A DNA stretch of 57,645 bases, the filler included, from Squatina squatina (taxonomy: Eukaryota): the NCBI GenBank assembly GCA_031763465.1. It is 3 parts of 3 records of this genome, joined end to end, with 100 filler letters (N's around TTAATTAATTAA, not from the genome) between each part and the next. Parts side by side here need not be neighbours in the genome. Positions count along the whole stretch, not along the records: positions 13,366 to 42,184 come from JARFOE010000203.1; 2 more parts are not named here. One strand, written 5' to 3'. Under the pieces are notes generated by a model. The model had not been told where the DNA came from and did not search any database. It saw only the letters and a program-made list of their open reading frames with translations. Below, one piece after another: positions 4,784 to 42,284 of the stretch. Made by a program: the position numbers and the translations under genes. The first letter of the stretch is position 1. Every line of letters begins with the position of its first letter.

Positions 4784-4927
4784 ATGTGTGTGTGAGTGTG
4801 TGTGTACACATGTGATTGTGTGTGCCCATGTATGCATGTATGCATGTACATGTGTTTGTGAGTGTGTGTGTCTGTGTATGTACGCATGCGTGTGTATGTA
4901 CATGGGTGTGTGTGTGAGTGTGTGTCT
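4784..4927. repeat. Imperfect (TG)n microsatellite
   Basis: Directly visible TG/TA dinucleotide run. Confidence 0.9.
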
Positions 4928-7675
4928 GAGACTGGTGCTCCTGTAATGACATTTACAGAGACAAACCAGTAAAATGCCTGGATACAACTGATCTTTGTAC
5001 TTCCCTACAAAAAATTCAGAACTACGTCACAGTAAGCTAGGAAAGTANNNNNNNNNNNNNNNNNNNNNNNNNNNNNNNNNNNNNNNNNNNNNNNNNNNNN
5101 NNNNNNNNNNNNNNNNNNNNNNNNNNNNNNNNNNNNNNNNNNNNNNNCAACTAAGCTATGCATATCAGGGATCAGAGATGCAATCTATCACTATATTGAG
5201 CCAGTTAAGATATTCCATTGACAGGGCAATCTTCCCCTCTGTGGGGCACTCTCTGAAAATCGTATTGGCTGCGGCCGCATATTTCTATTTTATGCACATT
5301 GTGGCTTTCTGATTGAAGTTGTTAATTTAGTGCCAGGTTGACCCACATTATAGAAAGGCTTTCTGCTGTGGGTCAATGCTCAGAAGAAAATTAATGTTGG
5401 AGGCTTTTTATTTACTTTTCCTGTCTGTCTCTTTTATCTTTCTCCCTTAATCCCATTTATATTTCCCAATCTTTATTTTGCTTTCTCTACATTATTTCAC
5501 TCTAATTTATATTTCCTTCTTTGTACTTCCTGGTTTGGACCCTGCATGGCTCAGTGAGGATTCTTCAATCTGATTGGCTGAAGAGGCTTGCTGTTTCTTA
5601 ACCTGCTCACTGATGCCACAGATCCCCTGTAGAGGGCGTCCCGCTGGGTCAGACGCCTGATGGCAGGAAGTCTCCACTCCAAAGCTGGTCAAATCATTGT
5701 GGGCAGCTGTCAGCGAGGTGAATGGCGAGCACCGTTCCTTCACCGCTGACCGCAAAATCCAATATATACAGCTCTGTAACACAGCAAACGTGTTGAAATT
5801 CAAGTGATTTGCTGTTTATTCCATACTGTGGTCTGGCAACTGTTTGATATTTTTTATATTCGCATACTTGCAAAGCCATAAAAACACTAATTTGTTTCAA
5901 AATTACATTTTAAACATATGGCATTATCAGGATATCTTTGCCAGCAGTGAGATATGATGAGTATCTCCGTTTATGAGGCTGACAATAATTCTTTCCAAAT
6001 TTCATTACTTGTGAGTTGAACTTTCAGCCTCAAGTGTGGTTATTTATCGTATCTCAAGGCTATCCCATGGCATGCCTTCTATTGATCACATTTTTCTCAT
6101 TAGTGCATTTTGGGAGGTTTGTGTGGAAGATCATGAGTCCTGAGGGTGATGGAAACCAATAACTTTTGATTTATAAAAGTTATTACCAGCACACATTAGA
6201 ATCCTGTGAGAATAGCAGTTTATAAGGTATTGAAATGATTGCACATGATTACAGAATACTGTACTTAGACACACAAATAATACGATTGAATTTTATTTAA
6301 GGGCTCAGGCCTGATTAACCCCCGCCTTTCATTTTTTGGGTGTGACAAACTGTTACCCTTTAGTGTTTTATATCCGCTGCACGATATTCCAGCAATACAA
6401 GGTAGTCCAGCATCCTCAGTTCTGCTGTGTCAAGTGTATCATTCTTAACTGTCTAACAAAGATTGTTTTCATTTTTAACATCCCTCTAATGTACTATAGG
6501 GGAGACTTTGAAGCCTCCCAGCCAACAGATATGGGCAGTCATGCCCCAAAATCACGGCTAGGAATTTTCTGCCTCGTTTCCACCGTCACTTTTTTGGTCA
6601 TCGCCATTTTGCTAGGGTCCTCAGGAGAGACTGTCCAGTTGACTGCCTGAAACATGCATTACAGCCAAGTTAGGCATTTAAATTGGGGTCCGATGACATC
6701 AATAGGACGCCAATGGAATTTTAACTGGGTTCTTTAAGGTGAAGCTGCTGTGGTTTTCCTAGCTGCAGCTGCAGCCTCAAAGCAAGGCACGTACAACACT
6801 TCCATTGGCAGTCAAGGTCACTGTCGTGCTCAGCTGTCATGTCATGGGCTCCTTTCAAGCAGAAACAGGTGAAGTTAGCAATATCCTGCATTTTGCAGGA
6901 TCAGGGAGGTCACCAAGGCTCTGTACAACAAGAGATATAATCTCCTTCACCATTAACAGAGAGAAGCAGGAAGAGAGAGGATGAGGATTTGCCCTCATTG
7001 AATCAAAGAATGGTTACAACACAGAAAGAGGTTATAGAAACATAGAAAATAGGTGCAGGAGTAGGCCATTTGGCCCTTCGAGCCTACACCGCCATTCAAC
7101 ACGATCATGGCTGATCTTTCAACTCAGTACCCCGTACCTNNNNNNNNNNNNNNNNNNNNNNNNNNNNNNNNNNNNNNNNNNNNNNNNNNNNNNNNNNNNN
7201 NNNNNNNNNNNNNNNNNNNNNNNNNNNNNNNNNNNNNNNGAAGTTGCTCAGCCAATATTATTGGGGATGAAGACATGCGAGAGCTTGCACCCACAGTACA
7301 ATTAATTTGTGTTACATAGAATATACAGCACAGAAACAGGCCATTCAGCCCCATCAGTCCATGCCAGCATTTATGCTCTATTTGAGCCTCCTCCCGTCCT
7401 TCCTCATCTAACTATCAGCATAAACCTCTATTCCCTTCTCCCTCGTATGCTTACTTAGCTTTGCCTTCAATGTATCTCTACCACTCCCTGTGGCAGCAAG
7501 CTCCATATTCTCACCATTCTCTGGATAAAGAAGTTTCTTAAATTGCAACAGTGACAACACATCAAAAAGTACTTCAACTGCAAAGCACTTTGGGATGTCC
7601 GGTGGTAATGAACGGCGCTATATAAATGCAAGTCTTTCCGTTACAAATACACTCTCTTCATTTTTTATTTCACAG

Positions 7676-7909
7676 GTCTCGACCCAGCTGGACCGCTGTT
7701 TGAAGGCATGTCACCAACAGATCGTTTATCTCCTGATGATGCAAATTTTGTTGATGCGCTACACACATTTACACAAGAACATATGGGACTGAGTGTTGGA
7801 ATCAATCAACCTGTAGCCCATTACGACTTCTACCCAAATGGTGGCACCTTTCAACCCGGCTGCCACCTCAAACACATGTACAATCATATTGCCCAGTATG
7901 GAATTCTAG
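7676..7909 (+). CDS. LIPC: Hepatic lipase exon with catalytic Asp and start of the lid
   Basis: cacag|GT...CTAG|gtatga, 234 nt; [63 protein letters not shown]. The EHMGLSVGI motif is LIPC-type rather than LPL/LIPG. Confidence 0.93.
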
Positions 7910-8209
7910 GTATGATTTGGCCTTGGAGGAACTGGTTGTAAATATTTCAGTGTAATAAGAAAAATAGATTAACACAAAAGCCATATTGATAATGAGGTGT
8001 TTGTTGATTCATTTGATGATGATGATGAAGGGTTATGAAAAAGAACATATGGAATTACATAGAAACATAGAAAATAGGAGCAGGAGTAGGCCATTCGGCC
8101 CTTCGAGCCNNNNNNNNNNNNNNNNNNNNNNNNNNNNNNNNNNNNNNNNNNNNNNNNNNNNNNNNNNNNNNNNNNNNNNNNNNNNNNNNNNNNNNNNNNN
8201 NNNNNNNNN

Positions 8210-9420
8210 CATCATGAGACTGACAGGGATTGGATGTTTGCCCACCTTTCGACTAGCAGGAATTTGATGTTTGTGCATAATTAGACTGGCATGGATTTAT
8301 GTTTGTGTACCTTTAGACTGGCAGTGTTTGGATGTTTCCCCATCTTTAGACTGGCAGGGATTGTATTTTTGCTCATCATTACACAGGCAGGAAGTTGTTG
8401 TTTGCCCATCATTTTACTGGCAGTGTTTGGATATTTGCCCATATTTAGACTAGCAGGGATTGGATGCTTGTGCCTCATAAGACTGGCAGGGATTTTATGT
8501 TTCCCCACCATTAGACTGGCAGGGATTGGATGTTTGCCCATCATTAGACTGGCAGCGATTGGATGTTTGCCCACCATTAGACGGGCAATGATTGGAAGTT
8601 TGCCCATCATGAGACTGGCAGGGATTGGATGTTTCCCCACCATTAAACTGGCAGGGATTGGATGTTTGCCCGTCATTAGACTGGCAGCGATTGGTAGTTT
8701 GCCCATCATTAGACTGACAGGGACTGGATGTTTAGCCACCTTTGGGCTGGCAGGGATTTAATGTTTGTGCATCCTTACACTGGCCGGGATTGTATGTTCG
8801 CCCATCATTAGACGGGCAATGATTCCTTGTTTGCCTGTAATTAGACTGGCAGGGATTGGATGTTTGCCCATCCTTAAATTGGCCAGAATTTTACGTTTGC
8901 CCATCAATAGTCTGGCAGGGATTGGATATTTGCTCATCATTAAACTGGCAGGGATTGGATGTTTGCCCACCTTTAGACTAGCAGGAATTGGATGCTTGTG
9001 CATCATTAGACTGGCATGGTTCTTATATTTGCCCCCGATTAGACTGGCAGGGATTGGATGTTTGCCCATCATTAGACTGGCAGTGATTGGATGTTTGCCC
9101 CCATTAGACGGGTAGCGATTGGAAGTTTGCCCATCATTAGACTGACAGGAATTGGATGTTTGCCCACCATTAGATTGGCATGGATTGGATGTTTGCCCAC
9201 CTTTAGACTGGCAGGGATTGGATGTTAGCCTATCATTAGACGGGCAGAGATTGGATCTTTGCCCATCATTAGATGGGCAGGGATTTGATGTATGCTCATC
9301 AGTAGGCGGGCAGGGATTCGATGTTTGCCCACCATTAAATGGGCAGGGAGTGGATGTTTGACCACCATTAGATGGACAGGGATTGGATGTTTGCCCATCT
9401 TTAGATGGTCAGGGATTGCC
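8210..9420. repeat. 33-bp minisatellite in a LIPC intron
   Basis: Unit ~attagactggcagggattggatgtttgcccatc; explains the 11-aa-periodic ORFs on both strands. Confidence 0.95.
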
Positions 9421-9579
9421 TTTATTACCACTTTGTGTTAATCTGAGGACGCCGTTGCATCATACATCACCTCAGCACCAAAAGGAGTCAATTATTTTAC
9501 ATTATCTATTTTTTTTTTCAAACTTTAGACTGCTCAGAAGGCTATTGTACCAATTGCTCATTCTTTCATTGTCTCCCAG

Positions 9580-9822
9580 GTATTACAGAAACTGTGAAGT
9601 GCGCACATGAGAGATCTGTGCACTTGTTCATTGATTCTTTGCTGAATGAAGACAAGCAAAGTGTTGCATATTGGTGCAATGACCTGAGCACATTTAACAA
9701 AGGAATCTGTCTGAGCTGCAGGAAAAATCGATGCAACACTCTGGGCTATAACATTAAAAAGGTCCGTACTCAAAGAAGCAAGAAAATGTACCTGAAAACC
9801 CGCGCTAATATGCCGTACAAAG
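9580..9822 (+). CDS. LIPC: Hepatic lipase exon with catalytic His
   Basis: cccag|GT...AAAG|gtaagt, 243 nt; [21 protein letters not shown]...[20 protein letters not shown]...PYK. Confidence 0.93.
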
Positions 9823-11128
9823 GTAAGTTCTCTAATTGTTTCCATTGCTTCTTTCNNNNNNNNNNNNNNNNNNNNNNNNNNNNNNNNNNNNNNNNNNNNN
9901 NNNNNNNNNNNNNNNNNNNNNNNNNNNNNNNNNNNNNNNNNNNNNNNNNNNNNNNTGGAGAGAAAGCAGGTACGGGGTACTGAGTTGAAAGATCAGCCAT
10001 GATCGAGTTGAATGGCAGTGCAGGCTCAAAGGCCTTCTGCACCTATTTTTCTATGTTTCACATACTGAGGGGTCAAACTGACACTTGTCAGTTTTCTAAT
10101 GACCCAACTCCTTTGGGTGACATAGAAGTGTTCTTTGGGTTCAAATGGGATTCTTACCATTGCTGTGCAGGCACCTTGTGTGGTTCTAGCAGGTTAATCT
10201 TTATTCGTAGTCTATATGTATTTGAGGGTTGCTCAGCCTTGGCTCCAGTCAACCTGTACCTGAATTCTCAGGACTTATATAACTGGGGTATGCTTGTACA
10301 GAAGGAGTGCACACTTCACTACAACCAAACTGAACCCCTCTAAGTTTGGCTTAGAGTCTCTTCAGCATAGAGAGCGTTTTACACATGAGTCAGCTGGCCA
10401 AAGAGTGGTTCTAACAATGTAGACAGATTTAGATGCAGTCTGAGCCCAATTCGGATTATAGGGAGAATGTGAGCATCCTAAAAGGAACATGATCTGAAGT
10501 ACCTGCCACCTGTTATCATTTTGTAATAAGACAGAGAAGATGCAACTGGAAATCTTATACAAGTTTCACCCAACCTCCTCCATAGCTGGGGACACGTCTC
10601 TTCCATGACAGATGGACAAGGTGTGATGAATACAGTTACCTCTATATAATTTTTCCCTCGGCTTTTCTCAGAATTTCTAGGACAAAAGTCACAGTTCACT
10701 AGACAATTATGGAAGGAAAGAGAGCTAATAATCAACAGGCTGAAAAAAAGGCCAGCCAGTCTCCAAATAGATGGATTTTGAATCTACTGATATCCATAGT
10801 AAGGAGTGGATGCACTCTACAGGAGGATGTCCTTTGCTATATTGCTTCAGCTATCTTGCTACAGACTTTGCCATTTTTTTGGTAAAAATTATGTTCGTAC
10901 TATGGGGCTCCTCGGTTTGCCTCTTTTTCAAGTAATTTAAAAAAGCAGATGGAAATGAACTGATTTTACTGTGCATGTTACTTACTCCAAGCTACCTTGT
11001 TTTAAGATTTCACATCAGAGTAGGGAACAGTTGTACTATATTGTTTGTAACTACCCTAATCAAAATGAATAGCTTTTTGAAATTACACTGGTATTAGATA
11101 AAGTGCAGGAACTTCGATTTTATTTCAG

Positions 11129-11347
11129 AGTTGAAAGCATCACTACCAACAAAACCTATTCATTTCTGATTCACACCGACGTTAACATTGGAGATTTGAT
11201 GATGCTGAAGTTCAAATGGGAAAACTCCGTTGCTTGGGCAAACCTTTGGAAGACTGTCCAAACATATTTTCCATGGAGACAGAATAATCTGAATTCCGAG
11301 CTCATTGTCAGAAAAATACGAATCAAAGCTGGAGAAACTCAACATAA
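11129..11347 (+). CDS. LIPC: Hepatic lipase PLAT-domain exon
   Basis: tttcag|A...CATAA|gtaagt, 219 nt; NKTYSFLIHTDVNIGDLMMLKFKWENSVAWANLW...IRIKAGETQ. It starts in phase 2 while the preceding visible exon ends in phase 1, so one exon is missing, probably in the gap at 9856-9955. Confidence 0.92.
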
Positions 11348-12369
11348 GTAAGTTGTGAAAAAAATGGTTGCATCTGTTTGCCAGATTACTTTTATTATCT
11401 ATGCAATCAAAGTCATCTCTCAAATCCTTATAATCCTTGTAACATCCTGGGAGGATGTTCCCCCTGGCTGGCGAGTCTAGACCTTGGGGTCACAGTCAAG
11501 GTTGCGGCACGCAGTATTCTGAAAGCTGCTCACCGGCTTTTCCATTGTAAATACCATGCATGCGCAGAAATTTAAAGGGTCCATGCAGAACAAAGCGCAG
11601 CTTACAGGGAACATTGGTCACAGTCTCAGAATAAGGGGTTGGCCATTTAGGACTGAGATGAGGAGAAATTTCTTCAAATGGTTGTGAATTTGTGGCATTC
11701 TCTATCCCAGATGGTGCGGATGCTCAGGCATTGNNNNNNNNNNNNNNNNNNNNNNNNNNNNNNNNNNNNNNNNNNNNNNNNNNNNNNNNNNNNNNNNNNN
11801 NNNNNNNNNNNNNNNNNNNNNNNNNNNNNNNNNNNNNNNNNNNNNNNNNNNNNNNNNNNNNNNNNNNNNNNNNNNNNNNNNNNNNNNNNNNNNNNNNNNN
11901 NNNNNNNNNNNNNNNNNNNNNNNNNNNNNNNNNNNNNNNNNNNNNNNNNNNNNNNNNNNNNNNNNNNNNNNNNNNNNNNNNNNNNNNNNNNNNNNNNNNN
12001 NNNNNNNNNNNNNNNNNNNNNNNNNNNNNNNNNNNNNNNNNNNNNNNNNNNNNNNNNNNNNNNNNNNNNNNNNNNNNNNNNNNNNNNNNNNNNNNNNNNN
12101 NNNNNNNNNNNNNNNNNNNNNNNNNNNNNNNNNNNNNNNNNNNNNNNNNNNNNNNNNNNNNNNNNNNNNNNNNNNNNNNNNNNNNNNNNNNNNNNNNNNN
12201 NNNNNNNNNNNNNNNNNNNNNNNNNNNNNNNNNNNNNNNNNNNNNNNNNNNNNNNNNNNNNNNNNNNNNNNNNNNNNNNNNNNNNNNNNNNNNNNNNNNN
12301 NNNNNNNNNNNNNNNNNNNNNNNNNNNNNNNNNNNNNNNNNNNNNNNNNNNNNNNNNNNNNNNNNNNNN

Positions 12370-13704: not shown

Positions 13705-13940
13705 GCTCGATTTCACTGCAGGAATCCACTTCAGCATCTGGGCTTCCGGCCCCCTCCCGCGAGTTATCGAGATCAGGGCAGGAGTCATCCGAAGCTTTGG
13801 AGCGCTTGCGGCTTGGACCAGCCTCCTGGTTGCTGTGCGCGGACACGTTGCTGACGTGAGAGCGGCTGTCGCAGTTGTCCTCCCCGCCACTGAAAGTGGT
13901 ATTGTCTGATTCGTGCTGTGCCTTCCTTACTCGCTGAGCT
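13705..13940 (-). CDS. RING1: RING1 (PRC1 E3 ligase) linker exon, truncated by a 10-N gap; not in the ORF track
   Basis: cttcgtag|A acceptor, phase 2; (R)[78 protein letters not shown] leads into the EIELVFRPHP motif of RING1/RNF2. The RAQRVR start and the position beside SLC39A7 favour RING1. Confidence 0.85.
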
Positions 13941-17389: not shown

Positions 17390-17573
17390 CACCCGGACTG
17401 CACCAGGATTGCAAAGTCTCCGATCTCGTGAGGGACTTCGTGCAGCAAAATGGTGATGGTGGTGACAACCCCCACGTTGGTGCTGACGAGAAACGAGGCG
17501 CCGATCGCCAGCCCGTCTGTGAAGTTGTGAGTAAAGTCCGCCGCGAGGTTCAAGTATCCCGACACTTTAATAT
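17390..17573 (-). CDS. SLC39A7: Zinc transporter ZIP7/KE4 exon (TM4-TM5), truncated by gap
   Basis: ctcag|AT; [28 protein letters not shown]...[19 protein letters not shown] carries the LIV-1 subfamily signature. Confidence 0.93.
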
Positions 17574-17869
17574 CTGAGATCGGGGAGAGAGGAATGGTTA
17601 GCGAGACAACGGCGGGAAGGCTGGTGCGTCCCAGCGTGGCACCCGACATCTGCTCGAATCTAATTTACGCCATAAGCCCCAGGGAACTGCCGCCACCGCG
17701 GTTCACGGGACCGTGACTGGCCAGGCGGAGTTTGCGAGCCCGTCCGGACGGTCACTGCCCGACAGTAGACGAGGTAGCAGGGTTGCTCTCCTCCTGCTCC
17801 CGCTCCCGCTCCCGCTCTCCCGCTCCCCCAATCTTTGTGATCAGGACCATCGTAACACACAGCACTCAC

Positions 17870-19276: not shown

Positions 19277-20159
19277 GGCCGGCCGGGCGAAGCTGGCGGG
19301 CACGGTGTCTACCGGCCGGGCCTCCGCCACCTGGGATAGCGGCTCCGCCCCCGCCAGACGCCTCACCAGGGCCAGCTCCTCGTCTGGGAGGCAGTCCACC
19401 ACTGACACTCCGTGCCGGAGGGCCGACTCCAGCACGCAGGGTGGCTGCCGGGCTCCGGACAGCAGCAGTCCCACCCCCAGACCCTGCAGGCATGCCAGGG
19501 ACTCATCCATCCTGCCTCGCACCCAGGCTCGAGCCTTCGCCAGGCCCACAGGCGACTCCAGCCGCAGGGTGCAGCCGGCCTGGGTCAGAGGGGGGAGCAG
19601 GCTGCAGGCTGCCACCAGCACCCGGGTTTCACCCTGGCCGCTGCAGCGCACCGCGAAGCTGCGGCTCAGCGGCAGCCCCTCCAGCACCCTGCTTCTGCCC
19701 ACGGGCAGCCCCGGCACCGTGCAGTGCAGGCCCAGGAAACAGTCAGCCGCCAGGCCCAGCGCATTCTCCGTCACCGTCTCCTCACCGCCCAGCTGCCAGA
19801 GGAAGTCGCAGGCCAGCCGGGTCAGGAAGGGGGCGTGAGCTGCCCCTACCTTCCCCGCGAAGTAGGCCCCCAGCACCCGGGCTGCCCACTCCCCGGGCAG
19901 GCACAGCCGCCCACTGGAGAGGCAGAGGGCCGAGGTGCAGTGAGGGGCCAGGCTCTGGCCCAGCACCTGCTCCAGCACCTCCTGCTCCAGGCTGGCCAGC
20001 CCCCCGGCCGCCCGGAGCCGCCATGCGGTCACGCCCGCTAGCCCCTCACTCCCCGCCTCTGCTCGCACTCCTCGCAGCATGGCGGCCAGCAGCAGGATGA
20101 AGGACTTGGCTCCGTCTCCGGTGACCCTGCAATGAGCCGACACGCACCGCACCATCAAC
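19277..20159 (-). CDS. BBS10: Chaperonin-like BBS10, large second exon, 3' end lost in gap
   Basis: tctccccacag|G, phase 2; (R)LMVRCVSAHCRVTGDGAKSFILLL matches BBS10 RMIVDCVSSH..TGDGAKTFIIFL. Also shows YFAGKVG and VPGLPVGRSRVLEGL motifs; open for ~290 codons. Confidence 0.88.
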
Positions 20160-20405
20160 CTGTGGGGAGACACAGCAGGCCCTGAGAGAGCGGTCGCAGC
20201 TTGGCAAAGACACCCAGAAATAATCACCCGCTCATAAACGCCCACATTAAACACCCGCTCATAAACAGCCACCCCATAAACGCCCATGTTAAACACACAC
20301 TCATANNNNNNNNNNNNNNNNNNNNNNNNNNNNNNNNNNNNNNNNNNNNNNNNNNNNNNNNNNNNNNNNNNNNNNNNNNNNNNNNNNNNNNNNNNNNNNN
20401 NNNNN

Positions 20406-21210: not shown

Positions 21211-21378
21211 CCGATCCCGTAGATGTTTTACAAGTGTTGCAGTTTAATACATTACCTGAAGGAGTAAGGAAAGTCACAGGCTTCTGTCCCAAAAGGAAAT
21301 CCGTCTCCAGTTCAGATGTGGCTTACAGAATATCCAAAAAGGCTCAAATCAGCGCCCCCACCAAACAGCTGTTCCCAG
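21211..21378 (+). CDS. COL11A2: Collagen XI alpha-2, N-terminal TSPN exon
   Basis: ctgcag|CC...CCAG|gtaagc, 168 nt; [25 protein letters not shown]...[21 protein letters not shown]. Clade B fibrillar collagen; A2 favoured by [13 protein letters not shown] and by synteny. Confidence 0.85.
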
Positions 21379-21792: not shown

Positions 21793-24437
21793 TCAGGCTC
21801 TGGTTCAGTGTGTGGTTCAGTGTTTGCTTCAGTCTCTGGTTCAGTCTCTGGTTCAGTGTGTGGTTCAGTTTCTGGTTCAGGGTGTGGTTCCGTGTGTGAT
21901 TCTGTCTCTGGTTCAATGTGTGGCTCCGTTTGTGGTTCAGTCTCTGGTTCAGTCTCTGATTCAGTCTCTGGTTCAGTGTCTGGTTCAGTTTCTGGTTCAG
22001 TCTCTGGTTCAATCTCTGGGTCAGTGTGTGCTTCAGTGTGTGGTTCACTGTGTGGTTCAGTCTCTGGTGCAGTGTGTGGTTCAGTTTCTGCTTCAGTGTC
22101 TGGTTCAGTGTCTGGTTCAGTGTGTGGTTCAGTGTGTGTTTCACAGTGTGGTTCAGTCTCTGGCTCAGTGTGTGGTTCAATGTGTGGTTCAGTCTCTGGT
22201 TCAGTGTGTGTTTCAGTGTGTGGTTCAGTCTCTGGTTCAGTGTGTGGTTCAGTGTGTGGTTCAGTCTCTGCTTCAGTGTGTGGTTCAGTGTGTGGTTCAG
22301 TGTGTGGTTCAGTCTCTGATTCAGTCTCTGGTTCAGTTTGTGGTTCAGTCTCTGGTTCAGTGTGTGGTTCAGTTTCTGGTTGAGTGTGTGGTTCAGTCTC
22401 TGTTTCAGTCTCTGTTTCAGTGTGTGGTTCAGTGTGTGGTTCACTGTGTGGTTCAGTCTCTGGTTCCGTGTGCGGTTCCGTGTGTGGTTCAGTGTGTGGT
22501 TCAGTCACTGGTTCAGTGTGTGGTTCAGTTTCTGGTTCAGTTTCTGGTTCAGTGTCTGGTTCAGTGTGTGGTTCAGTCTCTGGTTCAATCTCTGGGTCAG
22601 TGTGTGCTTCAGTGTGTGGTTCAATGTGTGGTTCAGTGTGTGGTTCAGTGTGTGGTTCAGTCTCTGCTTCAGTGTGTGGTTCAGTGTATGGTTCAGTCTC
22701 TGATTCAGTCTCCGGTTCAGTGTGTGGTTCAGTCTCTGGTTCATTGTGTGGTTCAGTCTCTGGTTCAGTGTGTGATTTAGTGTGTGGTTCAGTGTTTGTT
22801 TCAATGAGTGGTTCGGTCTCTGGTTCAATCTCTGGGTCAGTGTGTGCTTCAGTGTGTGGTTCATTCTCTGGTTCCATGTGTGGCTCAGTTTGTGGTTCAC
22901 TCTCTGCTTCAGACTCTGGTTCAGTGTGTGGTTCAGTCACTGGTTCAGTGTGTGTTTCAGTGTCTGTCTCAGTGTGTGGTTCAGTGTGTGGTCCATCTCT
23001 GGTTCAGTCTCTGATGCAGTGTGTGGGTCAGCCTCTGGTTCAGTGTGTGTTTCAGTGTGTGTCTCAGTGTGTGGTTCAGTGTGTGGTTCAGTGTGTGGTT
23101 CAATCTCTGGTTCAGTGTGTGTTTCACTGTGTGGCTCAGTGTGTGGTTCAGTGTGTGGCTCAGTTTGTGGTTCAGTCTCTGGTTCAGTGTGTGGTTCAGT
23201 GTGTGGAATCAGTCTCTGGTTCAGTCTTTGGTTCAGTGTGTGTTTCATTGTGTGTCTCAGTTTGTGATTCAGTGTGTGGTTCAGTGTGTGTTTCACTGTG
23301 TAGTTCAGGCTCTGGTTCAGTGTGTGGTTCAGTCTCTGGTTCAGTGTGTGGTTCAGTTTCTGGTTCAGGGTGTGGTTCAGGGTCTGGTTCCGTGTGTGAT
23401 TCAGTCTCTGGTTCAATGTGTGGCTCAGTTTGTGGTTCAGTGTGTGGTTCAGTGTGTGGTTCACTGTGTGGCTCAGTCTCTGGTTCAGTCTCTGGTTCAG
23501 TGTGTGGTTCACTGTGTGGTTCAGTCTCTGGTTCCGTGTGCGGTTCCGTGTGTGGTTCAGTGTGTGTTTCAGTGTGTGGCTCAGTCTCTGGTTCAGTGTG
23601 TGGTTCAGTTTCTGGTTCAGTGTCTGGTTCAGTGTGTGGTTCATTCTCTGGTTCACTGTGTGGTTCAGTCTCTGCTTCAGTGTGTGGTTCACTGTGTGGT
23701 TCAGTCTCTGGTTCAGTGTGTGGTTCAGTATGTGGTTCAATCTCAGGTTCAGTGTGTGGTTCAGTGTGTGGTTCAGTCTCTGCTTCAGAGTGTGGTTCAG
23801 TCTCAGCTTCAGTGTGTATTTCAGTGTGTGGTTCAGTCTCTGGTTCAGTGTGTGGTTTATTCTCTGGCTCAGTGTGTGGTTCAGTGTGTGGTTCAATCTC
23901 TGGTTCAGTGTGTGGTTCAGTCTCAGCTTCAGTGTGTATTTCAGTGTGTGGTTCAGTCTCTGGTTCAGTCTCTGGTGCAGTGTGTGGGTCAGCCTCTGGT
24001 TCAGTGGGTGTTTTAGTGTGTGTCTCAGTGTGTGTTTCAGTGTGTGGTTCAATCTCTGCTTCAATGTGTGGCTCAGTTTGTGGTTCAGTCTCTGGTTCAG
24101 TCTCTGGTTCAATGTGTGGCTCATTTTGTGGTTCAGTCTCTGGTTCAGTGTGTGTTTCAATCTCTGGTTCAGTGTGTGTTTCAGTGTGTGGTTCAGTGTG
24201 TGGTTCAATCTCTGGTTCAGTGTGTGTTTCAGTGTGTGTTTCAGTGTGTGGTTCAGTGTGTGGCTCAGTGTGTGGTTCAGTCTCTGGTGCAGTGTGTGTT
24301 TCATTGTGTGTCTCAGTTTGTGGTTCAGTGTGTCGTTCAGTGTGTGTTTCACTGTGTAGTTCAGGCTCTGGTTCAGTGTGTGGTTCAGTGTTTGCTTCAG
24401 TCTCTGGTTCAGTCTCTGGTTCAGTGTGTGGTTCAGT
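21793..24437. repeat. 12-bp minisatellite, ~2.6 kb, placed within COL11A2
   Basis: Interspersed tcagtgtgtggt and tcagtctctggt variants; bounded by gaps on both sides. Confidence 0.97.
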
Positions 24438-24969: not shown

Positions 24970-25023
24970 GGTCCGTCAGGTCCTCAGGGTCCAATCGGCT
25001 ATCCTGGGCCACGTGGTGTGAAG
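24970..25023 (+). CDS. COL11A2: COL11A2 triple-helix exon (54 nt)
   Basis: cacag|GGT...AAG|gtgaga; GPSGPQGPIGYPGPRGVK; canonical 54-nt collagen exon. Confidence 0.9.
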
Positions 25024-25136
25024 GTGAGAATCAACGCAGAGCGTATTTTGGCTGTATTTGTGAGAGACTCTGATCGTGTGAGTCATCGTTGGTTGTCATC
25101 AGGCCCCATAACTAACTGTCCTTCTGTCTCTTTCAG

Positions 25137-25181
25137 GGATCTGAAGGAATCCGAGGGCTGATGGGACACAAAGGCGAAAAG
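25137..25181 (+). CDS. COL11A2: COL11A2 triple-helix exon (45 nt)
   Basis: tttcag|GGA...AAG|gtgaga; GSEGIRGLMGHKGEK, where GHKGEK is the COL11A2-type sequence. Confidence 0.88.
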
Positions 25182-25447
25182 GTGAGAACGTTTCATTCGG
25201 TCTTTGGTCTTCCGCATGTCCCTTTGAGTGTATTGCCAACAATGTTCCCTGTGAGCTGCGCTTTGTTCTGTGAGACCTTTTAGTGCGCGGCCCCTTTAAA
25301 CTTCTGCACGCGTGCGGTATTTACAACAGAGAAGCCGGTGAGCGGCCNNNNNNNNNNNNNNNNNNNNNNNNNNNNNNNNNNNNNNNNNNNNNNNNNNNNN
25401 NNNNNNNNNNNNNNNNNNNNNNNNNNNNNNNNNNNNNNNNNNNNNNN

Positions 25448-25615
25448 GAACCATTCCAGTAAATCTCCTCTGCACCCTCTCCAAGGCCTTGACATCCTTC
25501 CTAAAGTGTGGAGCCCAGAATTGGACCCAATCCTCCAGCTGGGGCCTCACCAGTGATTATAAAGGTTCACCATAACCCCCTTGCTTTTGTACTCGATGCC
25601 TCTGTTAATGAAGCA
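25448..25615 (-). mobile_element. CR1-type LINE ORF2 fragment
   Basis: [33 protein letters not shown]. Confidence 0.85.
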
Positions 25616-25718
25616 AGTGTCGGAGTTTGGATGGAATTCCCTTTGATCAAGGCCGTTCAGTGAACGTCCATTCACAGCGACACACAACAGAGGCTGGCTC
25701 AGAAAGGCTTCTACTCAC

Positions 25719-25961
25719 CAGCGTGCAGTACATCTCGGGGGTCTCTCCACACGTACTGTCGGAGGGATCCAACCTGACCTTCAGGAACCTGGTGAGCAGG
25801 GCGGCCTCGGGCTGGCAGGCCATGTAATCCCAACTCATCCCCTGGTCCCAGTGAACCTGAGCCTTACACAGGTCGTAGTGACCCCAGGACGGGAAGTGCT
25901 GCGCGGCGAGAGACAGGGCCGCCCAAAGGGCCTGAAGGGACAACAAACCGGACAGACGCAT
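25719..25961 (-). CDS. Netrin-G family first coding exon (signal peptide plus start of laminin N-terminal domain); NTNG1-like but divergent
   Basis: ATG at 25961, CTG|gtgagt donor; MRLSGLLSLQALWAALSLAAQHFPSWGHYDLCKAQVHWDQGMSWDYMACQPEAALLTRFLKVRLDPSDSTCGETPEMYCTL. WGHYDLCK and WDYMACQPE are NTNG1 motifs. A candidate acceptor at 26481 would give a long 5' UTR in the same exon. Confidence 0.88.
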
Positions 25962-26130
25962 CGCTCCGACTGGACCCCGCTCAGAGAGGGACGATCTCGC
26001 TCCGTCTGGGGGTGATTCAGGGGGTCTCCACTCTGACTGGACCCTGCTCAGAGAGGGGCGATCTCGCTCCGTCTGGAGGTGATTCAGGGGGTCTCCGCTC
26101 TGACTGGACCCCGCTCAGAGAGGGACGATC
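25961..26130. repeat. 67-bp tandem repeat abutting the netrin-G start codon
   Basis: Full units start at 25997 and 26064, plus a shortened unit at 25961-25996. Confidence 0.9.
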
Positions 26131-26152
26131 TCATTGCTTGTAGATGTACTAG

Positions 26153-26372
26153 GTCTGGGGATTCCAGCTGTTTTCCCAGTGTTGCTGCAGATGTTCCAGA
26201 TGTTGGGATTCCAGCTGTTTTCCCAGCGTTGGTGCAGATATTCCAGATGTTGGGATTTCAGCTGCTTTCCCAGTATTGGTGCAGATTTTCCAGGTGTGGG
26301 GATTCCAGCTGTTTTCCCAGTGTTGGCGCAGATGTTCCAGGTGTGGGGATTTCAGCTGTTTCCCCCAGCTGT
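26153..26372. repeat. 47-bp tandem repeat (4-5 copies)
   Basis: Unit ~ggattccagctgttttcccagtgttggtgcagatgttccagatgttg. Confidence 0.9.
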
Positions 26373-26823
26373 TTGCTGTGTCAGACAGATGTTCTAATTA
26401 GATGATCAGTCGGTCCTGATGAATGTCTCCTGACCAGAGTCTGTTTCCCATCGATCATCTCTTCCTTCTGACATCAGTTCCCTGTTTGGAGAGAAATAAA
26501 ATCAATGAACTTCGGCACAGATGCTGCTCCTGAACTTCGACCTTCGACCCCACCCTCAGACTCCGCCTCCCATTGGTTGCAGTGTTTCCCAGGAACAATC
26601 ACCAGTTGGTAATCACAGCAGCCAATAGGAGGCGGCAAAATGACTCTCACTAAGATCCCAACTGAGACGAATGGCCAATTATCCGACTTTAGTGATGTTG
26701 GTTGAGGGATAAATATTGGCCAGTAGCTGGGAGAACTTCCCCACTCTTCTTCAAAATAGAACCGTGGGATTTTTTACAACCATGTGAGAGGGCAGGAGGC
26801 ACCTCGGTTTAAAGTCTCATCCA

Positions 26824-26955
26824 CCAGTGAGGCGCTCCCTCAATACTGATCCTCCGACAGTGCAGCACTCCCTCAATACTGATCCTCCGCCAGTGCAGCG
26901 CTCCCTCAATACTGCCCCTCCGCCAGTGCAGCGCTCCCTCAATACTGCCCCTCCG
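26824..26955. repeat. 33-bp tandem repeat expanded from a SINE body
   Basis: Unit cagtgcagcgctccctcaatactgcccctccgc, contiguous with the minus-strand SINE at ~26690-26830. Confidence 0.8.
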
Positions 26956-28353: not shown

Positions 28354-28960
28354 TGTCCCATATCTCCAGTGAGGAATATCTCCAATTGTGTCTCTGAACC
28401 CTGTCCAATATCTCCCGTATGGAATATGCCCAATTGTGTCTCTGAACCCTGTCCAATATCTCCAGTGGGGAATATGTCCAATTGTGTCTCTGAATCCTGT
28501 CCGATATCTCCAGTGGGGAATATGTCTAATAGTGTCTCTGAAACCTTTCCAATATCTCCAGTGGAAAATATATCCAATTGTTTCTCTGAATCTCCAGTGG
28601 GGAATATGTCCAATTGTGTCTCTGAACCCTGTCAATTTTCTCCAGTGGAGAAGATGTCCAATTCTCTCTGAACCCTGTCCAATATCTCCAGTGGGGAATA
28701 TGTCCAATTGTGTCTCTGAACCCTGTCCATTATCTCCAGTTGAGAAAATGTCCAATTGTGTCTCTGAACCCTGTCCAATGTCTCCAGTGGAGATCATGTC
28801 CAATTCTGTCTGGACCCTGTCCAATATCTCCAGTGGAAAATATGTCCAATTGTGTCTCTGAATCTCCAGTGGGGAATATGTCCAATTGTGTCTCTGAACC
28901 CTCTCAATTGTCTCCAGTGGAGAATATGGTCAATTCTCTCTGAACCCTGTCCAATATCTC
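28354..28960. repeat. 48-bp minisatellite
   Basis: Unit tgtccaatatctccagtggggaatatgtccaattgtgtctctgaaccc; produces 16-aa-periodic ORFs. Confidence 0.95.
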
Positions 28961-29060
28961 NNNNNNNNNNNNNNNNNNNNNNNNNNNNNNNNNNNNNNNN
29001 NNNNNNNNNNNNNNNNNNNNNNNNNNNNNNNNNNNNNNNNNNNNNNNNNNNNNNNNNNNN

Positions 29061-30269
29061 TGTCTCATGTCAGCTCCTGTAAGGCCCATGAATGTCTCAG
29101 TGTCAGTCCCTGTACATCCTGTGTGTCTCAGTGTCAGCTCCCGTACAGCCCTGTGTGTCTCAGTGTCAGCTCCCGTACAGCCCTGTGTGTCTCAGTGTTA
29201 GTCCCTTTACGGCGTATGTGTGTCTCAGTGCCAGTCCCTGTACAGCCCGTGTGTGACTCAGTGTCAGTCCCTGTAGATCCCGGGTGTGTGTTTCAGTGTC
29301 AGCTCCTGTTTGGCCCGTATGTTTCTCTGTTTCAGTCCCCGTTTATCCCGTGTGTGGCTCAGTGTCAGTCCCTCTACGGCCCGTGTGTTTCTCAGTTTCG
29401 GCACCAGTACATCACGTGCGTGTCTCAGTATCAGACACTGTACGGCCCGTGTGTAACACAGTGTCAGCTACTGTACATCACGTGTGTCTCAGTGTCAGCT
29501 CCTGTACGGCTCTTCTCTGTCTCAGTGCCAGTCGCTGTACAGCCCGTGTGTGTCTCAGTGTCAGTCCCTGTAGATCCCTGGTATGTGTCTCAGTGTCAGC
29601 TCCTGTAAGGCCCATGAATGTCTCAGTGTCAGTCCCTGTACATCCTGTGTGTGTCTCAGTGTCAGTCCCTGTACATCCTTGGTGTGTCTCAGTGTCAGCT
29701 CCTGTAGGGCCCATGTGCGTCTCAGTGTCAGTCCCTGTACACCCCATGTTTGTCTCAGTGTCAGCTCCTGTAAGAACCTTCTGGTTCACAGTGCCAGTCC
29801 CTGTATAGTCCGTGTGTGTCTCAGTATCGGCTCCTGTCCACTCCGTGTGTGTCTCAGTGTCAGGTCCTGTGCAGCCCGTGTGTGTCTCAGGGTCAGTTCC
29901 TGTGCAGCCCGTGTGTGTCTCAGTGACAGCTCCTGTACAGCCCTGTGTGTGTCTCCGTGCCAGTCCCTGTACACACCGTGTGTGTCTCAGTTTCAGCTCC
30001 TCTACGCCCCGTGTGTGTGTCAGTGTCAGGCACTTAACTGCCCGTGTGTGTCTCAGTGTCAGACCCTGCACACCCTGTGTGTGACTCAGTGTCAATCCCT
30101 GTACATCCCGTGTGTGTCTCAGTGTCAGCTCCTGTAAGGTCCATGTCTGTCTCAGTGTCAATCCCTGTACATCCCGTGTGTGTCTCAGTGTCAGGTCCTG
30201 TGCAGCCCTGTATGTCTCAGTGTCAGGTCCTGTGCAGCCCTGTATGTCTCAGTGTCAGTCCCCGTAGAC
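29061..30269. repeat. ~33-35-bp minisatellite
   Basis: Unit ~tgtgtgtctcagtgtcagtccctgtacagcccg with variable TG number. Confidence 0.93.
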
Positions 30270-30480: not shown

Positions 30481-31145
30481 TGCACCAGGAAATGGTGCAA
30501 ATGGAGTGTAGCTCCATACAGAGTGTGGGAATTTGGTAAGAGAGGGAATTGTAAGCCTTACGTTTTAAGGGTAAATCTCTCTTGAAAGGGTTAATCTTTC
30601 TGTACATCTAGTTTAGTTTCTTTTTTTTTTGTAAAACATAAAACAATTAACAAATTAAACTAAAAACCAAAACTGAACAAAAACCCTGGTGTTTAAATTA
30701 AAACCCTAGTATCCCCAGTGAGGATGCAGTCCAGTCCCTAAATGCAGTTAAGTCAACCACTGCTGTGGGTCTGGAGTCACATAGGCCAAACCAAGTAAGG
30801 ATGGCAGATTTCCTTCTCTGAATGACATTAGTGAACCAGTTGGGTATTTTACAACAATTTGGTCGTTTCAGGATCATCGTTACTGATGCTAGCTTTTATT
30901 TCATTGTTTGTTTGTATTTATTTATTTTGAATTTAAATTCCCCAGCTGCCCTGGTGGGATTTGAACTAGTGTCTCTCAATCATTTTGTCCGGGCCTCTGG
31001 GTTAACCCAGTCCCACTTAAAGTGGAATGCGCTCCACTCCAGGAAAAGAACAATTGACTCATCTCCTCACCCCCCCAAACACCGGCACAGTCCTAGGTCA
31101 CTCACCAAGTTCGAACTCCAGTAAACCATGGGCTTTGTTCCGCAG

Positions 31146-31690
31146 GTCCGCTCGCCCTGTCTCTGGACCCCGAAACAGCAAACCCTTGGCTGCAGCTGTC
31201 TGAGGACCTGACCAGTGTACAGGTCATCGATACCAAGCAGCTGCTTCCCGACAACCTGGCGAGGTTTGATGTGTGTGTCTCTGTCCTGGCCACTGAGGGC
31301 TTCACAGCAGGGATGCACTACTGGGAGGTGGAGGTGAGCGACAAGTCCAAATGGGATGTGGGTGTAGCCAGAGAGTCCATTAACAGGAAGGGCGATATCT
31401 CTCTGAAGCCTGAGAATGGATACCTGGCACTATCTCTGAGCAACGGAAACCAGTACTGTGCTCTAACCTCACCCACAGTCACCACGCTGTCTCTGAGGGT
31501 GAAGCCCAGCCGGATTGGAGTTTACCTGGACTACGAGGGAGGTCAAGTGTCCTTTTACGTGGCTGATGACTTGTCTCATATCTACACTTTCACAGAGACA
31601 TTTGTCGAGAGAATGTTCCCTTTCTTTTGCCCCTGTTTGAATGACACTGGGGACAATGGCTCTCCTCTCTCGATCGGTTTGTTTAGTTGA
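31146..31690 (+). CDS. B30.2 (PRY-SPRY) terminal exon, TRIM/butyrophilin-type gene
   Basis: cgcag|GT, phase 1; [18 protein letters not shown]...RFD...GF..G.HYWEVEV...WDVGVARES...[15 protein letters not shown]...FCPC; stop at 31688-31690. Confidence 0.92.
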
Positions 31691-32626: not shown

Positions 32627-32942
32627 AGGGGGTGTGACACAGTAAATGTACACAGGAGTGTGTGTTAAAGGAGAGGGGTGTGTCACAGTGAATGTACACA
32701 GGAGTGTGTGTTAAAGGAGAGGGGTGTGTCACAGTGAATGTACACTGGAATGTGTGTTAAAGGAGAGGGGTGTGTCACAGTGAATGTACACTGGAGTGTG
32801 TGTTAATGGCGAGGGGGTGTGACACAGTGAATGTATACTGGAATGTGTGTTAAAGGAGAGGGGTGTGTCACAGTGAATGTATACTGGAGTGTGTTAAGGG
32901 TGAGGGATGCATCACAGTGAATGTATGCTGCCCTGTGTTAAA
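32627..32942. repeat. 46-bp tandem repeat in a FLOT1 intron
   Basis: Unit ttaaaggagaggggtgtgtcacagtgaatgtacacaggagtgtgtg. Confidence 0.92.
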
Positions 32943-32989
32943 GGCAAAAGGCAATCGGCAATCGCACAGAGTCCTCTGCTGCAGCCTAC

Positions 32990-33109
32990 CTGGTCATCGT
33001 GGATGTCCTTCAGGGTGTAACTGACCACTCCGATGCCCATGTTGACCAGGTCAGAGGACGCCACTTTAAACACCTGCTCCGAGAACTTCTTCCGGTCTTT
33101 GTAGATCTC
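32990..33109 (-). CDS. FLOT1: Flotillin-1 exon
   Basis: cccag|GAG...CAG|gtaggc, 120 nt; [40 protein letters not shown]. Confidence 0.95.
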
Positions 33110-33447
33110 CTGGGAAGAGAACGTAAGCGAGTGGAATCTGGCAAGCCCAACAACCAAGGGGCCCCCCTCCCAACCCCCGAGTCTGCCTCCCCAACACCCA
33201 ACACCCCCATCCCCCAACATCTATCACCTACAGAAAGACACCCTTCCCCTTCAAGTCCCATGAGCGTGGTTAGGTGGAGGCCGAGGGCAAGGCCTGGGCA
33301 CAGGCCAGTTTGCCCAATTTGTTGGCATTTGACATTTCTGCAAGAACGTTTTTTTTTTTAAGTAATCGATAATCCCAGGTGAACGGCCAAGGGGCAAAAG
33401 GTCAAGATTACACAAAAAGTAGGCGAGAAGACGGGGTTAGCTCCTAC

Positions 33448-33591
33448 CTCCACAGTCATGTGAGCCATGATGGCCCTCTGGTGACCTTCCAGCGTCTCCA
33501 GGGCGATCTGCGCTATTTCGACCTCCGACTTCCCCAGGAACATCTGGCAGGCAGCAGCCAGCATCTCCTTATTCTGCCCCTGTATCTTCAC
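33448..33591 (-). CDS. FLOT1: Flotillin-1 exon
   Basis: tacag|GTG...GAG|gtagga, 144 nt; [48 protein letters not shown]. Confidence 0.95.
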
Positions 33592-34969
33592 CTGTAAAAG
33601 GAAGAGGTCACTCAGGGGGAGGAGGCGCTCAATGGGACCCAACAGGGATGCGCTGCATTAATAAAAGACCGAAAGGAAATGTTCCCCACAGTGAAGTATG
33701 TAGGTGCAAACAGGAAGAGATGGGGCAAAAGGGTTAATCCTGATGGAGCAAGCTCACTCTACAGCATCCCAGTGCATCCACCATATAGTACCTCAAGGTA
33801 CTCTTACCCTTGTACAGAATTTTACTCAATGAAACCCTTTTCCATTCACTTCCGGGGAACAGATTCCAATAGATCAAAACCCTTCCCATTCGTTCCCACT
33901 GTACAGGTCGCAACAGATTGTACCAGCTTCCAATCGATCCCACTGTACGGATTCCAATTAGTGGAATTCCTTCCCAATTGCTTCCACAGTACAGATCCCC
34001 AATGGACCAAACCCTTCCCATTCATTCCCACTGTACAGATCCCAGCAGATTGTACCAGCTCCCAATCGATCTCACTATACATCCCAATGGATCAAATGCC
34101 TTCTCAAATGGAATCTGTACAGTGGGAATGATTGGGAAGGAATGTGATCCATTGAGACTTGTACAGTGGGATCAAATTCCTTCCTAATTGCCAATGGATC
34201 AAATCTCTCGCCATGCACTCATACTATGCAGAATTNNNNNNNNNNNNNNNNNNNNNNNNNNNNNNNNNNNNNNNNNNNNNNNNNNNNNNNNNNNNNNNNN
34301 NNNNNNNNNNNNNNNNNNNNNNNNNNNNNNNNNNNTTTATTACACCCGCATTTATTTCCATTTTATTTAAAGGGTTTCTCATTCACCGCCCCCCCCTCCC
34401 CCCCCCCCCCCCCCCCACTGATCCAGACTGCCACTTGACACCAGAACTCAAGTAATTTTATGAGCCGACCTGCCATGATGTTGCTCAGAGGGAGTCAAGA
34501 GGACAATTGCCTTGACGTCTGGAGTCGGGAATGCTGCTGGGCACTGGGGTGGGTCCCCAGATGCAGTTGTTACATTCCTGAACCTGAGTTGCTTTCCTGT
34601 AATGGCTGACGCTCGTGTTTCCTGATCACAGGGCCTTTTATTTTTCCATCCTCAGGCTGACAACTCGACAAAATACACATCGCGCCTTCCAGGACGGAGT
34701 TCAAATTACTTCCATTTGTCGCAGTTTGAATGGAAAAGTTTACAGAACTGAATTCAAAGGGTTGACTTTTAGAACACTGCCGGTCGGTTCAGGCAGTCAC
34801 TTATACCGCGCCATGAGTTAAGAGTGCGTGTACGGAAGTGGGCCGCGCTCTGGGCCTTGCGCTCAAGGCCTGGGTTGACCACTCAGCCTCCTAACCCAGG
34901 TTGCTACCAAACGAGCCAAGCTCGAATGTGTACATGCTAAATGCACATGCCAGAGCTTGCCCATGCATT

Positions 34970-39305: not shown

Positions 39306-39822
39306 TTATATGACAGATGCTTCATGTTGGAAAATGTCCGTAACCCAGCAGATTTTCATGGCTCTTGAGTTCTTCCCACCATCATTCAAACAGGGACAGA
39401 AGTATGGGTAGAGTTTTTCAGTGAAATTATCAGTGAAAGTGTGGAGGTGGGACATGTTGTCCGCATTGTAAAATGATACTTGTCCGCCCTCGTGGTCCAG
39501 GTACACCCCAATCTTTTTGGGGTTCACACTCAGGCTCAGGTAGGTAGGAGGTGTGGTGAAAGCAGTATATTCATTATTTCGCAGGCCCAATCTCCAGTAT
39601 CCATCCTCAGGCATCCGCTTGATTCTCCCTTTCCTTTTGCAAGACTTCTTGGCTACCCCCAGATCCCACTCAGTCTTGTCCCCCAGCTCCACTTCCCAGT
39701 AGTGCCTCCCTGATGTGAATCCCTTCGATCCCAGAACACAGGCACAGCGATCAAACCTCTGTGGTATGTCTTGAAGCAGTTGCCGTTGTTCCCCCATTTT
39801 CACACTGGACAAGTCCTCGGAC
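39306..39822 (-). CDS. Second B30.2 (PRY-SPRY) terminal exon, 5' end lost in gap
   Basis: SEDLSSVKMG...PQRFD..ACVLGSKGFTSGRHYWEVELGDKTEWDLGVA...[30 protein letters not shown]; stop at 39306-39308. Confidence 0.92.
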
Positions 39823-40322: not shown

Positions 40323-40700
40323 ATGCCGGAGACCGCCACCAAGGTGATCGCCAAGAAAGGGGCCAAGAAGGCGGCGTCCAAGTCTCACCACAAGGGCGAC
40401 AGGAAGCGCCGGCGGGCCCGCAAGGAGAGCTACGGCATCTACGTGTACAAGGTGCTGAAGCAGGTGCACCCGGACACGGGCATCTCCTCCAAGGCCATGA
40501 GTATCATGAACTCGTTCGTGAACGACGTCTTCGACCGCATTGCCTGCGAGGCCTCCCGCCTGGCCCACTACAGCCGGCGGCACACCATGTCGTCGCGGGA
40601 GATCCAGACCGCCGTCCGCCTGCTGGTGCCCGGCGAGCTAGCCAAGCACGCCGTGTCCGAGGGCACCAAGGCGGTCACCAAGTACACCAGCTCCAAGTGA
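40323..40700 (+). CDS. H2B: Histone H2B, intronless, 125 aa, divergent
   Basis: [16 protein letters not shown]...[35 protein letters not shown]...[21 protein letters not shown]. Confidence 0.97.
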
Positions 40701-41543: not shown

Positions 41544-42184
41544 CTATAATAGGACTGGAAAGAGATGGACTGATCCAAGTTTTTCTTTAAACGCCCGAAT
41601 AACACAGGGCACTGCAGCCTCATTAGTCTCGGTAGTTACACTGTTGATAGTTTCCTTGATCAGACTGACAAACCTACTCAGAATGTCCAGGGCGAGAGAG
41701 CACAACAGGGGCTGTTCTCCACTCGGGGCTGCACAGTACTGTGTGACTTGCTTTCTCAGCCACGCCTGCTCAAATGGTACCGTCCGTTGGATGTACCGAT
41801 AATATTCATCAAAATTGTCCTCTTCCTTCAAATGCAACATAAGAGCCACTTGGAAGTTCTTTCGAAATTTGAATTTCCCACCTTTGCCTTGGTACCTGAC
41901 GTGCTGTACAATCTCCGGTCCCAGTTTCTTGTTAACTGCGTTCAGCAAAGCCGGTTCCAAACAGGATTTACAGAATATCTCGGCTCTTTGTTTGGTTTGG
42001 TCTTTTTTTCGGTAGATATTCTTGAAGCTTTTATAGTAATTTTTTTTCTCGTGTTGCAGCAGCTGGAGCGCATCGTTTTTCTTAAAGAACCTGTCCTGCA
42101 TCTCCTGAAATTTCTCCACGGCCAAGGAGCAAACATGGAGGCTGAACTCTGCTGTGAAATTTTCGTTGAAAGTGAATTCATTGT
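41544..42184 (-). CDS. Very large inducible GTPase (GVIN1/URGCP family), C-terminal helical region; 5' end lost at the linker
   Basis: Open for ~213 codons; EFSLHVCSLAVEKFQEMQDRF...KDQTKQRAEIFCKSCLEPAL...LGPEIV...LKEEDNFDEYYRYI resembles the family's post-GTPase region (recalled similarity). Confidence 0.78.
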
Positions 42185-42284
42185 NNNNNNNNNNNNNNNN
42201 NNNNNNNNNNNNNNNNNNNNNNNNNNNNTTAATTAATTAANNNNNNNNNNNNNNNNNNNNNNNNNNNNNNNNNNNNNNNNNNNN
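42185..42284. other. Artificial scaffold linker N44-TTAATTAATTAA-N44
   Basis: Same structure as 13266-13365; the 12-mer is at 42229-42240. Confidence 0.97.

Follow-up and report, generated by a model that had tools for sequence, protein, structure and literature searches.

Does the netrin-G exon that is placed beside a COL11A2-type collagen in the assembly of Squatina squatina belong to a third netrin-G gene, and is such a gene a relic of the 2R duplications or a younger copy of NTNG1? The stretch of DNA analysed here as a whole (57,645 nucleotides, called the window) had been read in an earlier note as carrying a retained MHC-paralogon ohnolog, sister to NTNG1 and absent from mammals. Mammalian netrin-Gs are GPI-linked axonal proteins (PMC4000137). 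They bind their NGL partners via three loops of the LamNT domain: loop I forms the common core, and specificity is determined by loops II and III (PMC3230378).

The exon is the first coding one of a netrin-G1-type gene of elasmobranchs, and its coding part is located at 25719..25961 on the minus strand according to PDB and protein matches and to the alignment. From the start codon ATG at 25961-25959 a stop-free frame of 243 coding nucleotides, corresponding to 81 aa, runs to 25719. It encodes a signal-peptide-like N-terminus, recognised by eye and by alignment, and the start of the LamNT domain, and its last two residues are the first two of the NGL-binding loop I. Codon 81 is followed by a splice donor GT in phase 0 (25714..25718, minus strand). 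The same exon probably comprises a 5′UTR of 520 nt (25962..26481, minus strand) whose 5′ boundary is taken from a pyrimidine tract and an acceptor AG at 26483-26482; with this boundary a full exon of 763 nt (26481-25719) is plausible. Translation likewise starts in exon 2 of mouse Ntng1. Four short upstream ATG frames, each closed by a stop, are found in the 5′UTR together with tandem repeats of 67 bp (x2.5) and 47 bp (x4.8) in the arrays 25964-26132 and 26142-26365. The GC3 of the exon is 0.81.

Only three PDB sequences were matched by the exon, all of them netrin-G chains, with human NETRIN-G1 (E=2e-27, 98.3 bits) well ahead of NETRIN-G2 (E=1.7e-13, 53.9 bits). The exon is real and far above chance similarity, and the intact NTNG1-type first exon with signal peptide and LamNT start that the earlier note described is borne out by frame, donor and score. 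The closest protein is a 'netrin-G1-like' model of the sawshark Pristiophorus (93 % identity). Since the nearest proteins are models of this name, the gene is already auto-annotated, as had been surmised. Pfam gave no match with the exon, which is too short for it, and clusters of netrin-G1 and -G2 both scored 0.94-0.97 in the ESM Atlas, a range that does not discriminate between the two. Orthologs comprise PF00055, PF00053 and a hydrophobic tail, and the sawshark ortholog reached 624 and 481 bits with the netrin-Gs as against 215 bits with netrin-1. Just as the exon is closer to NTNG1 than to NTNG2, loops II and III of the orthologs are of the NTNG1 class. The window itself contains the first coding exon only: tblastn with four netrin-G proteins found this one netrin-G exon and no other.

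The window consists of 42 pieces separated by 41 N-runs, 32 of which are exactly 100 N in length. According to this N-run map, the netrin exon lies in a piece (25448..26955) flanked by 100-N gaps. This piece terminates in repeat-like sequence, presumably of LINE and SINE identity, with a 33-bp tandem array at 26820-26955. One of the flanking gaps (25348..25447) separates it from the collagen piece. Three collagen exons were found by tblastn, all on the plus strand: one encoding part of the N-terminal domain (21211..21378; 98 % identity to Pristiophorus, 91 % to Rhincodon) and, from the middle of the gene, two triple-helix exons within 24970..25181 (24970-25023, 54 bp; 25137-25181, 45 bp). The last of them maps to residue 672 of the 1590-aa salmon COL11A2 model, therefore more than half of the collagen gene is missing before the netrin piece. 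Given the intervening gap, adjacency and convergence of the two genes are a matter of scaffold order, not a sequence fact, and the claim of a netrin-G gene next to COL11A2 and convergent with it is not sustained by the window as such. An assignment of the collagen to COL11A1 was rejected because its elasmobranch relatives fall outside the COL11A1 clade, in a tree built without COL5A1 and COL5A3 references. All nine shark and ray models returned by the collagen search (P0132-P0140) are N-terminal fragments of 186-565 aa; their names are alpha-1(V)-like, alpha-1(XI)-like or hypothetical and in no case COL11A2, and this collagen looks poorly annotated in elasmobranchs.

Upstream of the collagen, two minus-strand features recall the MHC region. 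A ZIP zinc-transporter exon (17390..17664) is read as SLC39A7, a marker of the extended class II region, on the basis of Pfam and shark gene order, and a chaperonin-like open frame (19277..20305) is read as BBS10 from a weak Cpn60_TCP1 match and the shark MHC gene order. In the chromosome lists for white shark, catshark and sawfish, bbs10 is flanked by HSD17B8 and RXRB, but on reedfish chr1 it lies far from col11a2. Two PRY-SPRY exons (31097-31690, plus; 39306-39822, minus), flotillin-type exons (32912-33657, minus) and a histone H2B gene (40323-40700, plus; GC3 0.96) are also present, a content consistent with an MHC region. Further features are a minus-strand exon at 13706-13926, which had no Pfam match and presumably resembles the middle of RING1/RNF2, a BTB-BACK exon at 55066-55443 (plus) and a long minus-strand frame at 41544-42236. 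The latter had no match in Pfam, nor did 41547-42182 in the PDB, and we take it to resemble URGCP or a very large GTPase. None of 88 further open frames matched Pfam, and the long open frames on several strands of the long tandem-repeat arrays (21793-24437, 8210-9400, 28354-30269) are spurious. Aquaporin and lipase exons at 1550-11351 (plus) are probably from other chromosomes. The terms 'aquaporin', 'aqp9' and 'lipc' have no row in any of the chromosome lists of the PMC10751288 supplement; therefore the window probably mixes pieces from different chromosomes.

Whether a netrin-G gene belongs to this chromosome at all has thus to be judged from other elasmobranchs. In the whale shark (Rhincodon) a netrin-G1-like gene and a COL11A2-type collagen are both located on a sequence 25,067,188 bp long, and this identity of length shows one common chromosome, not adjacency. 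The whale shark MHC genes TNX and CYP21 are listed on chr35, the para-1 gene TNR on chr10, and chr34-50 form the class below 30 Mb, so that a sequence of 25,067,188 bp fits the MHC chromosome. In this wider sense the linkage does hold: a netrin-G copy and the COL11A2-type collagen share a chromosome in the whale shark. The order and strands within the window, SLC39A7 (minus), BBS10 (minus), collagen (plus) and netrin-G (minus), equal those listed for white-shark chr19, where COL11A2 spans 340 kb and an unnamed minus-strand gene of 49 kb, LOC121291647, starts 4.8 kb past it. A position of netrin-G1-like just 3′ of COL11A2 in sharks is probable. The two genes listed beyond COL11A2 in the catshark are small (1 and 11 kb) and unnamed. 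The named sawfish list for the MHC chromosome (chr34) contains no netrin and has a TRIM gene 3′ of COL11A2 instead, and no netrin-G appears among the named genes of the reedfish list.

Most netrin-G1-type copies of sharks and rays lie on sequences of 104-140 Mb, and some species possess several. Among 30 matches of the exon search 17 were named elasmobranch netrin-G1(-like) proteins from 11 species, the ray proteins bearing the plain name 'netrin-G1'. The sawshark has four netrin-G1-like clusters (93-99 %, 42 member sequences) and Heptranchias three (99 %, 52 member sequences on at least two unplaced scaffolds; cluster ids for both species P0002-P0004, P0012, P0005-P0007); squalomorph sharks thus seem to have amplified the gene. 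Such near-identical copies invite the objection that the contig stems from the para-1 NTNG1 or another squalomorph copy, was put beside COL11A2 by reference scaffolding and represents an ordinary NTNG1. The 100-N joins throughout, the probable mixing of chromosomes and the single netrin exon in the window agree with this, as does the equal distance (93 %) of the exon from two sawshark types. Against it stand the white-shark order and strands and the whale-shark copy: there is an MHC copy, and the contig could belong to it. We consider such a misplacement unlikely, though more probable than any other alternative to the preferred reading, and infer that the contig represents the MHC copy.

Independent evidence for the number of loci comes from the catshark, where RNA-seq of the habenula (supplement of PMC11589584) lists transcripts of Ntng2, Ntng1 and Ntng1l. 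Ntng1l (XM_038816765.1) is enriched on the left side (b +0.86, q 3.3e-6), Ntng1 on the right (b -0.45, q 2.1e-3), and Ntng2 is a left marker (b +1.31) (PMC11589584). The opposite bias of Ntng1l and Ntng1 is not mentioned in the passages of its main text covered here. The accession of Ntng1 follows that of Ntng2 by 12,014 and that of Ntng1l by 35,202, while among the tenascins TNR and TNX follow TNC by 13,242 and 33,684, respectively. This spacing suggests that catshark Ntng1 is located on para-1 near TNR and Ntng1l on the MHC chromosome near TNX. In the protein searches, which returned 90 % clusters with their members hidden, no shark displayed a para-1 copy together with an MHC copy. The third shark netrin-G locus that the earlier note had proposed is nevertheless well supported by the three catshark transcripts, and an MHC-linked, expressed locus is probably real. 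A reading of the exon as the only NTNG1 of sharks, with a purely artefactual linkage, was dropped in view of these transcripts and the whale-shark co-location.

How old is this locus? Identity to the exon drops with species distance, from 85-93 % in the sawshark and 83-84 % in the sevengill shark over 70-84 % in galeomorphs (Mustelus 89 %, over 35 aa only) and 75 % in rays to 68 % in the chimaera and 52-65 % in bony vertebrates. Of the numerous bony matches the trees included 20 and 6, and they omitted one isoform each of Cetorhinus and the chimaera; unnamed matches (P0029, P0030, P0064) and unnamed collagen matches were left out of all analyses. All 16 elasmobranch proteins form one clade with the exon (100/100) on a stem of 0.28-0.30, and in the unrooted tree this clade joins chimaera NTNG1 against bony vertebrates (100/99). 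A search from chimaera NTNG1 gave 1051 matches; the best 120 of them included 13 elasmobranch rows, every one of which the exon had already matched, and no more conserved NTNG1 appeared among these rows. Had an ohnolog coexisted with canonical NTNG1, a conserved NTNG1 of sharks would be expected among the first of these matches; therefore a 2R ohnolog is not favoured.

The root of this tree had to be approached indirectly, for the trees are without a true outgroup and human NTNG2 entered only via PDB scores and alignments read by eye. Bit-score quartets against human NTNG2 grouped sharks with the chimaera in seven of nine cases (four of these by less than 4 bits) and the chimaera with bony vertebrates in the other two; the third topology did not occur (0/9). 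Non-reversible rooting has no power here, as all 29 root positions lay within 2.5 log-likelihood units. By eye, 4 of 15 columns shared by sharks and chimaera are derived with respect to human NTNG2 (59, 106, 145, 233), and sharks agree with NTNG2 in 4 of 21 columns shared by chimaera and bony vertebrates (190, 192, 193, 238). The changes in these latter four columns all raise GC, and three of the columns vary within groups. Shark chains are GC-shifted (GARP 79-82 vs 67-70, FYMINK 67-78 vs 89-99), and a deep branch can therefore be mimicked. Despite the long shark stem, their scores against human NTNG2 (468-484 bits) are close to those of chimaera (470) and coelacanth (485).

Taken as an unconverted 2R sister of NTNG1, the whole elasmobranch clade would imply that canonical NTNG1 was lost in elasmobranchs and the ohnolog in chimaeras and bony vertebrates. 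A root on the long stem would equalise the branch lengths, the two dissenting quartets point in this direction and four others are near ties, but three independent losses and a later duplication would be required. Moreover, sharks share with the chimaera conserved derived states (106, 145, 233) and a one-residue gap near residue 25, while the plain 'netrin-G1' name of the ray proteins and the 104-140 Mb sequences do not fit an MHC ohnolog. Among the human regions, 2R made sister pairs of 6+9 and of 1+19, and an MHC ohnolog is therefore expected as sister to NTNG2. Room for a 2R sister of NTNG1 is left by the proposal that NTNG1 and NTNG2 date from the first duplication round (PMC4000137). This is the least probable of the readings weighed here, and the retained ohnolog of the earlier note is disfavoured by the elasmobranch-only clade beside chimaera NTNG1 and, further, by the sawfish and reedfish lists, in which genes are named.

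Alternatively, only the position may be a true 2R relic, its sequence having been overwritten in the elasmobranch stem by conversion or exchange with NTNG1 and having evolved partly in concert since, with a short NTNG2-like tract left. Residues 186-196 of elasmobranch netrin-G1 (numbering of P0002) form an NTNG2-like surface patch that is absent from chimaera and bony NTNG1. By eye, six of about ten columns in which sharks agree with NTNG2 against chimaera and bony fish lie in this patch. Besides this tract, the place next to a clade-B collagen paralog, the GC shift with the long stem, the division of the quartets between two topologies and the grouping of copies by species (sawshark 95/87, Heptranchias 98/92) are in agreement with such an overwriting. 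The NTNG2-like states are, on the other side, mostly GC-raising and at sites that vary among sharks, interchromosomal conversion does not start easily when protein identity is about 60 %, and the listed reedfish and sawfish MHC chromosomes are again without netrin-G. Nor has the Rhincodon copy been homogenised with those of other carpet sharks: it falls outside Stegostoma and Hemiscyllium (AU p=0.025; the comparison was picked once the tree had been seen), which is what a paralog would do. We regard a converted relic as improbable, somewhat less so than an unconverted ohnolog. On this improbable reading a roughly 450-million-year-old locus would have been overwritten by a paralog from another chromosome, with the copies now marking opposite sides of the habenula.

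A duplication within elasmobranchs is preferred to an older origin. We hold it to be somewhat better than an even chance that elasmobranch NTNG1 sped up while its composition shifted towards GC and then underwent duplication, with one shark copy coming to lie on the MHC chromosome as a lineage-specific NTNG1 duplicate. The exon would be the opening of a netrin-G1-lineage gene in a squalomorph shark. After the split from chimaeras, elasmobranch NTNG1 would have evolved fast under the GC shift and then been duplicated, and in sharks one copy would have settled on the MHC chromosome, where it probably follows directly on the 3′ side of COL11A2. The result would be three shark netrin-G loci, NTNG2, NTNG1 and NTNG1-like. 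One coincidence counts against this lineage-specific duplication: the collagen that, judging from consecutive accessions, stands beside ntng1 in salmon is a paralog of COL11A2, and that a random duplicate should come to lie beside COL11A2 itself is left unexplained.

Loops I-III of the orthologs match those of chimaera and basal bony-fish NTNG1 at most positions. Loop I is conserved, the motifs RGYVWKxDK of loop II and TGATxVD of loop III are common to sharks, chimaera and basal bony fish, and galeomorph copies have small changes in loop III. As these loops are of the NTNG1 class, no third adhesion axis is indicated, and the third netrin-G/NGL axis postulated for cartilaginous fish finds no support. 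Tetrapod NTNG1 has a loop II that is one residue shorter than in all fishes and dissimilar in sequence, so the NTNG1-NGL specificity of fish may differ from the solved human complex. Judged by the loop sequences of the orthologs, the MHC-linked copy likely has NGL1 (LRRC4C) as its partner. The signal peptide would direct the protein into the secretory path and the hydrophobic C-terminal tail would receive a GPI anchor on axons. Loops I-III would then clasp the LRR domain of NGL1 on the opposing dendrite, by which NGL1 may be sorted into sub-dendritic zones. The duplicate would be set apart mainly by its expression site rather than by its ligand; that the copies differ in expression more than in ligand is the more likely alternative, as the opposite habenular bias suggests.

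Neither 'netrin' nor 'ntng' occurs in the main text of PMC10751288. The literature covered, which includes PMC10751288, PMC3230378, PMC4000137, bioRxiv 10.1101/034645, PMC11401434, PMC10620051 and PMC11589584 and few subscription papers, contains nothing on shark netrin-G in connection with the MHC, on 'Netrin-G3' as a shark gene or on the origin or position of netrin-G1-like/Ntng1l, although the tree of Ntng1/2 in Suppl. Fig. 18 of PMC11589584 may treat Ntng1l. If the lineage-specific duplication is true, sharks have three netrin-G genes compared with two in mammals, and NTNG1-type copies with a bias to opposite habenular sides offer a natural test of job-splitting by expression in a gene for synaptic specificity. 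A non-immune gene would be added to the shark MHC map, and the case cautions against taking every paralog within a paralogon for an ohnolog. Should the position be a 2R relic, the MHC paralogon gains one more family and a case of late exchange between ohnolog loci.

Among known systems, the gene resembles netrin-G1 most (NTNG1, laminet-1; PDB 3ZYJ; 'Netrin G1' of Callorhinchus). Both have a long signal peptide, a WGHYD start and an exon 1 that ends at loop I, and the orthologs share the succession of LamNT, laminin EGF, EGF and hydrophobic tail, alternative exons of the NTNG1 kind and loops I-III like those of fish NTNG1. Differences are the long GC-shifted elasmobranch stem, the several copies per species, one of them on the COL11A2 chromosome, and a loop II unlike the tetrapod form. 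With NTNG2 (PDB 3ZYG/3ZYI/3TBD) it has the fold family and the patch 186-196 in common; it differs in the exon score (53.9 bits vs 98.3 with NTNG1), in the score of LamNT plus EGF1 (480.6 vs 586.6) and in loops II and III, and sharks own a separate Ntng2. The 'netrin-G1-like' models of sharks in RefSeq and UniRef belong to the same clade and are up to 93 % identical to the exon, and catshark Ntng1l is, by its accession, probably the MHC copy. The MHC-linked copy adds modestly to a family already known, and its gene is auto-annotated already, by labels only. The ohnolog sets of the MHC paralogon, RXR, PBX, NOTCH, BRD, tenascin and clade-B collagens, have according to the available lists shark members on the MHC chromosome as well as on para-1 and para-9, and netrin-G is probably represented in all three places too; unlike them, the MHC netrin-G groups with the para-1-type copies of its own lineage and not in a gnathostome-wide clade.
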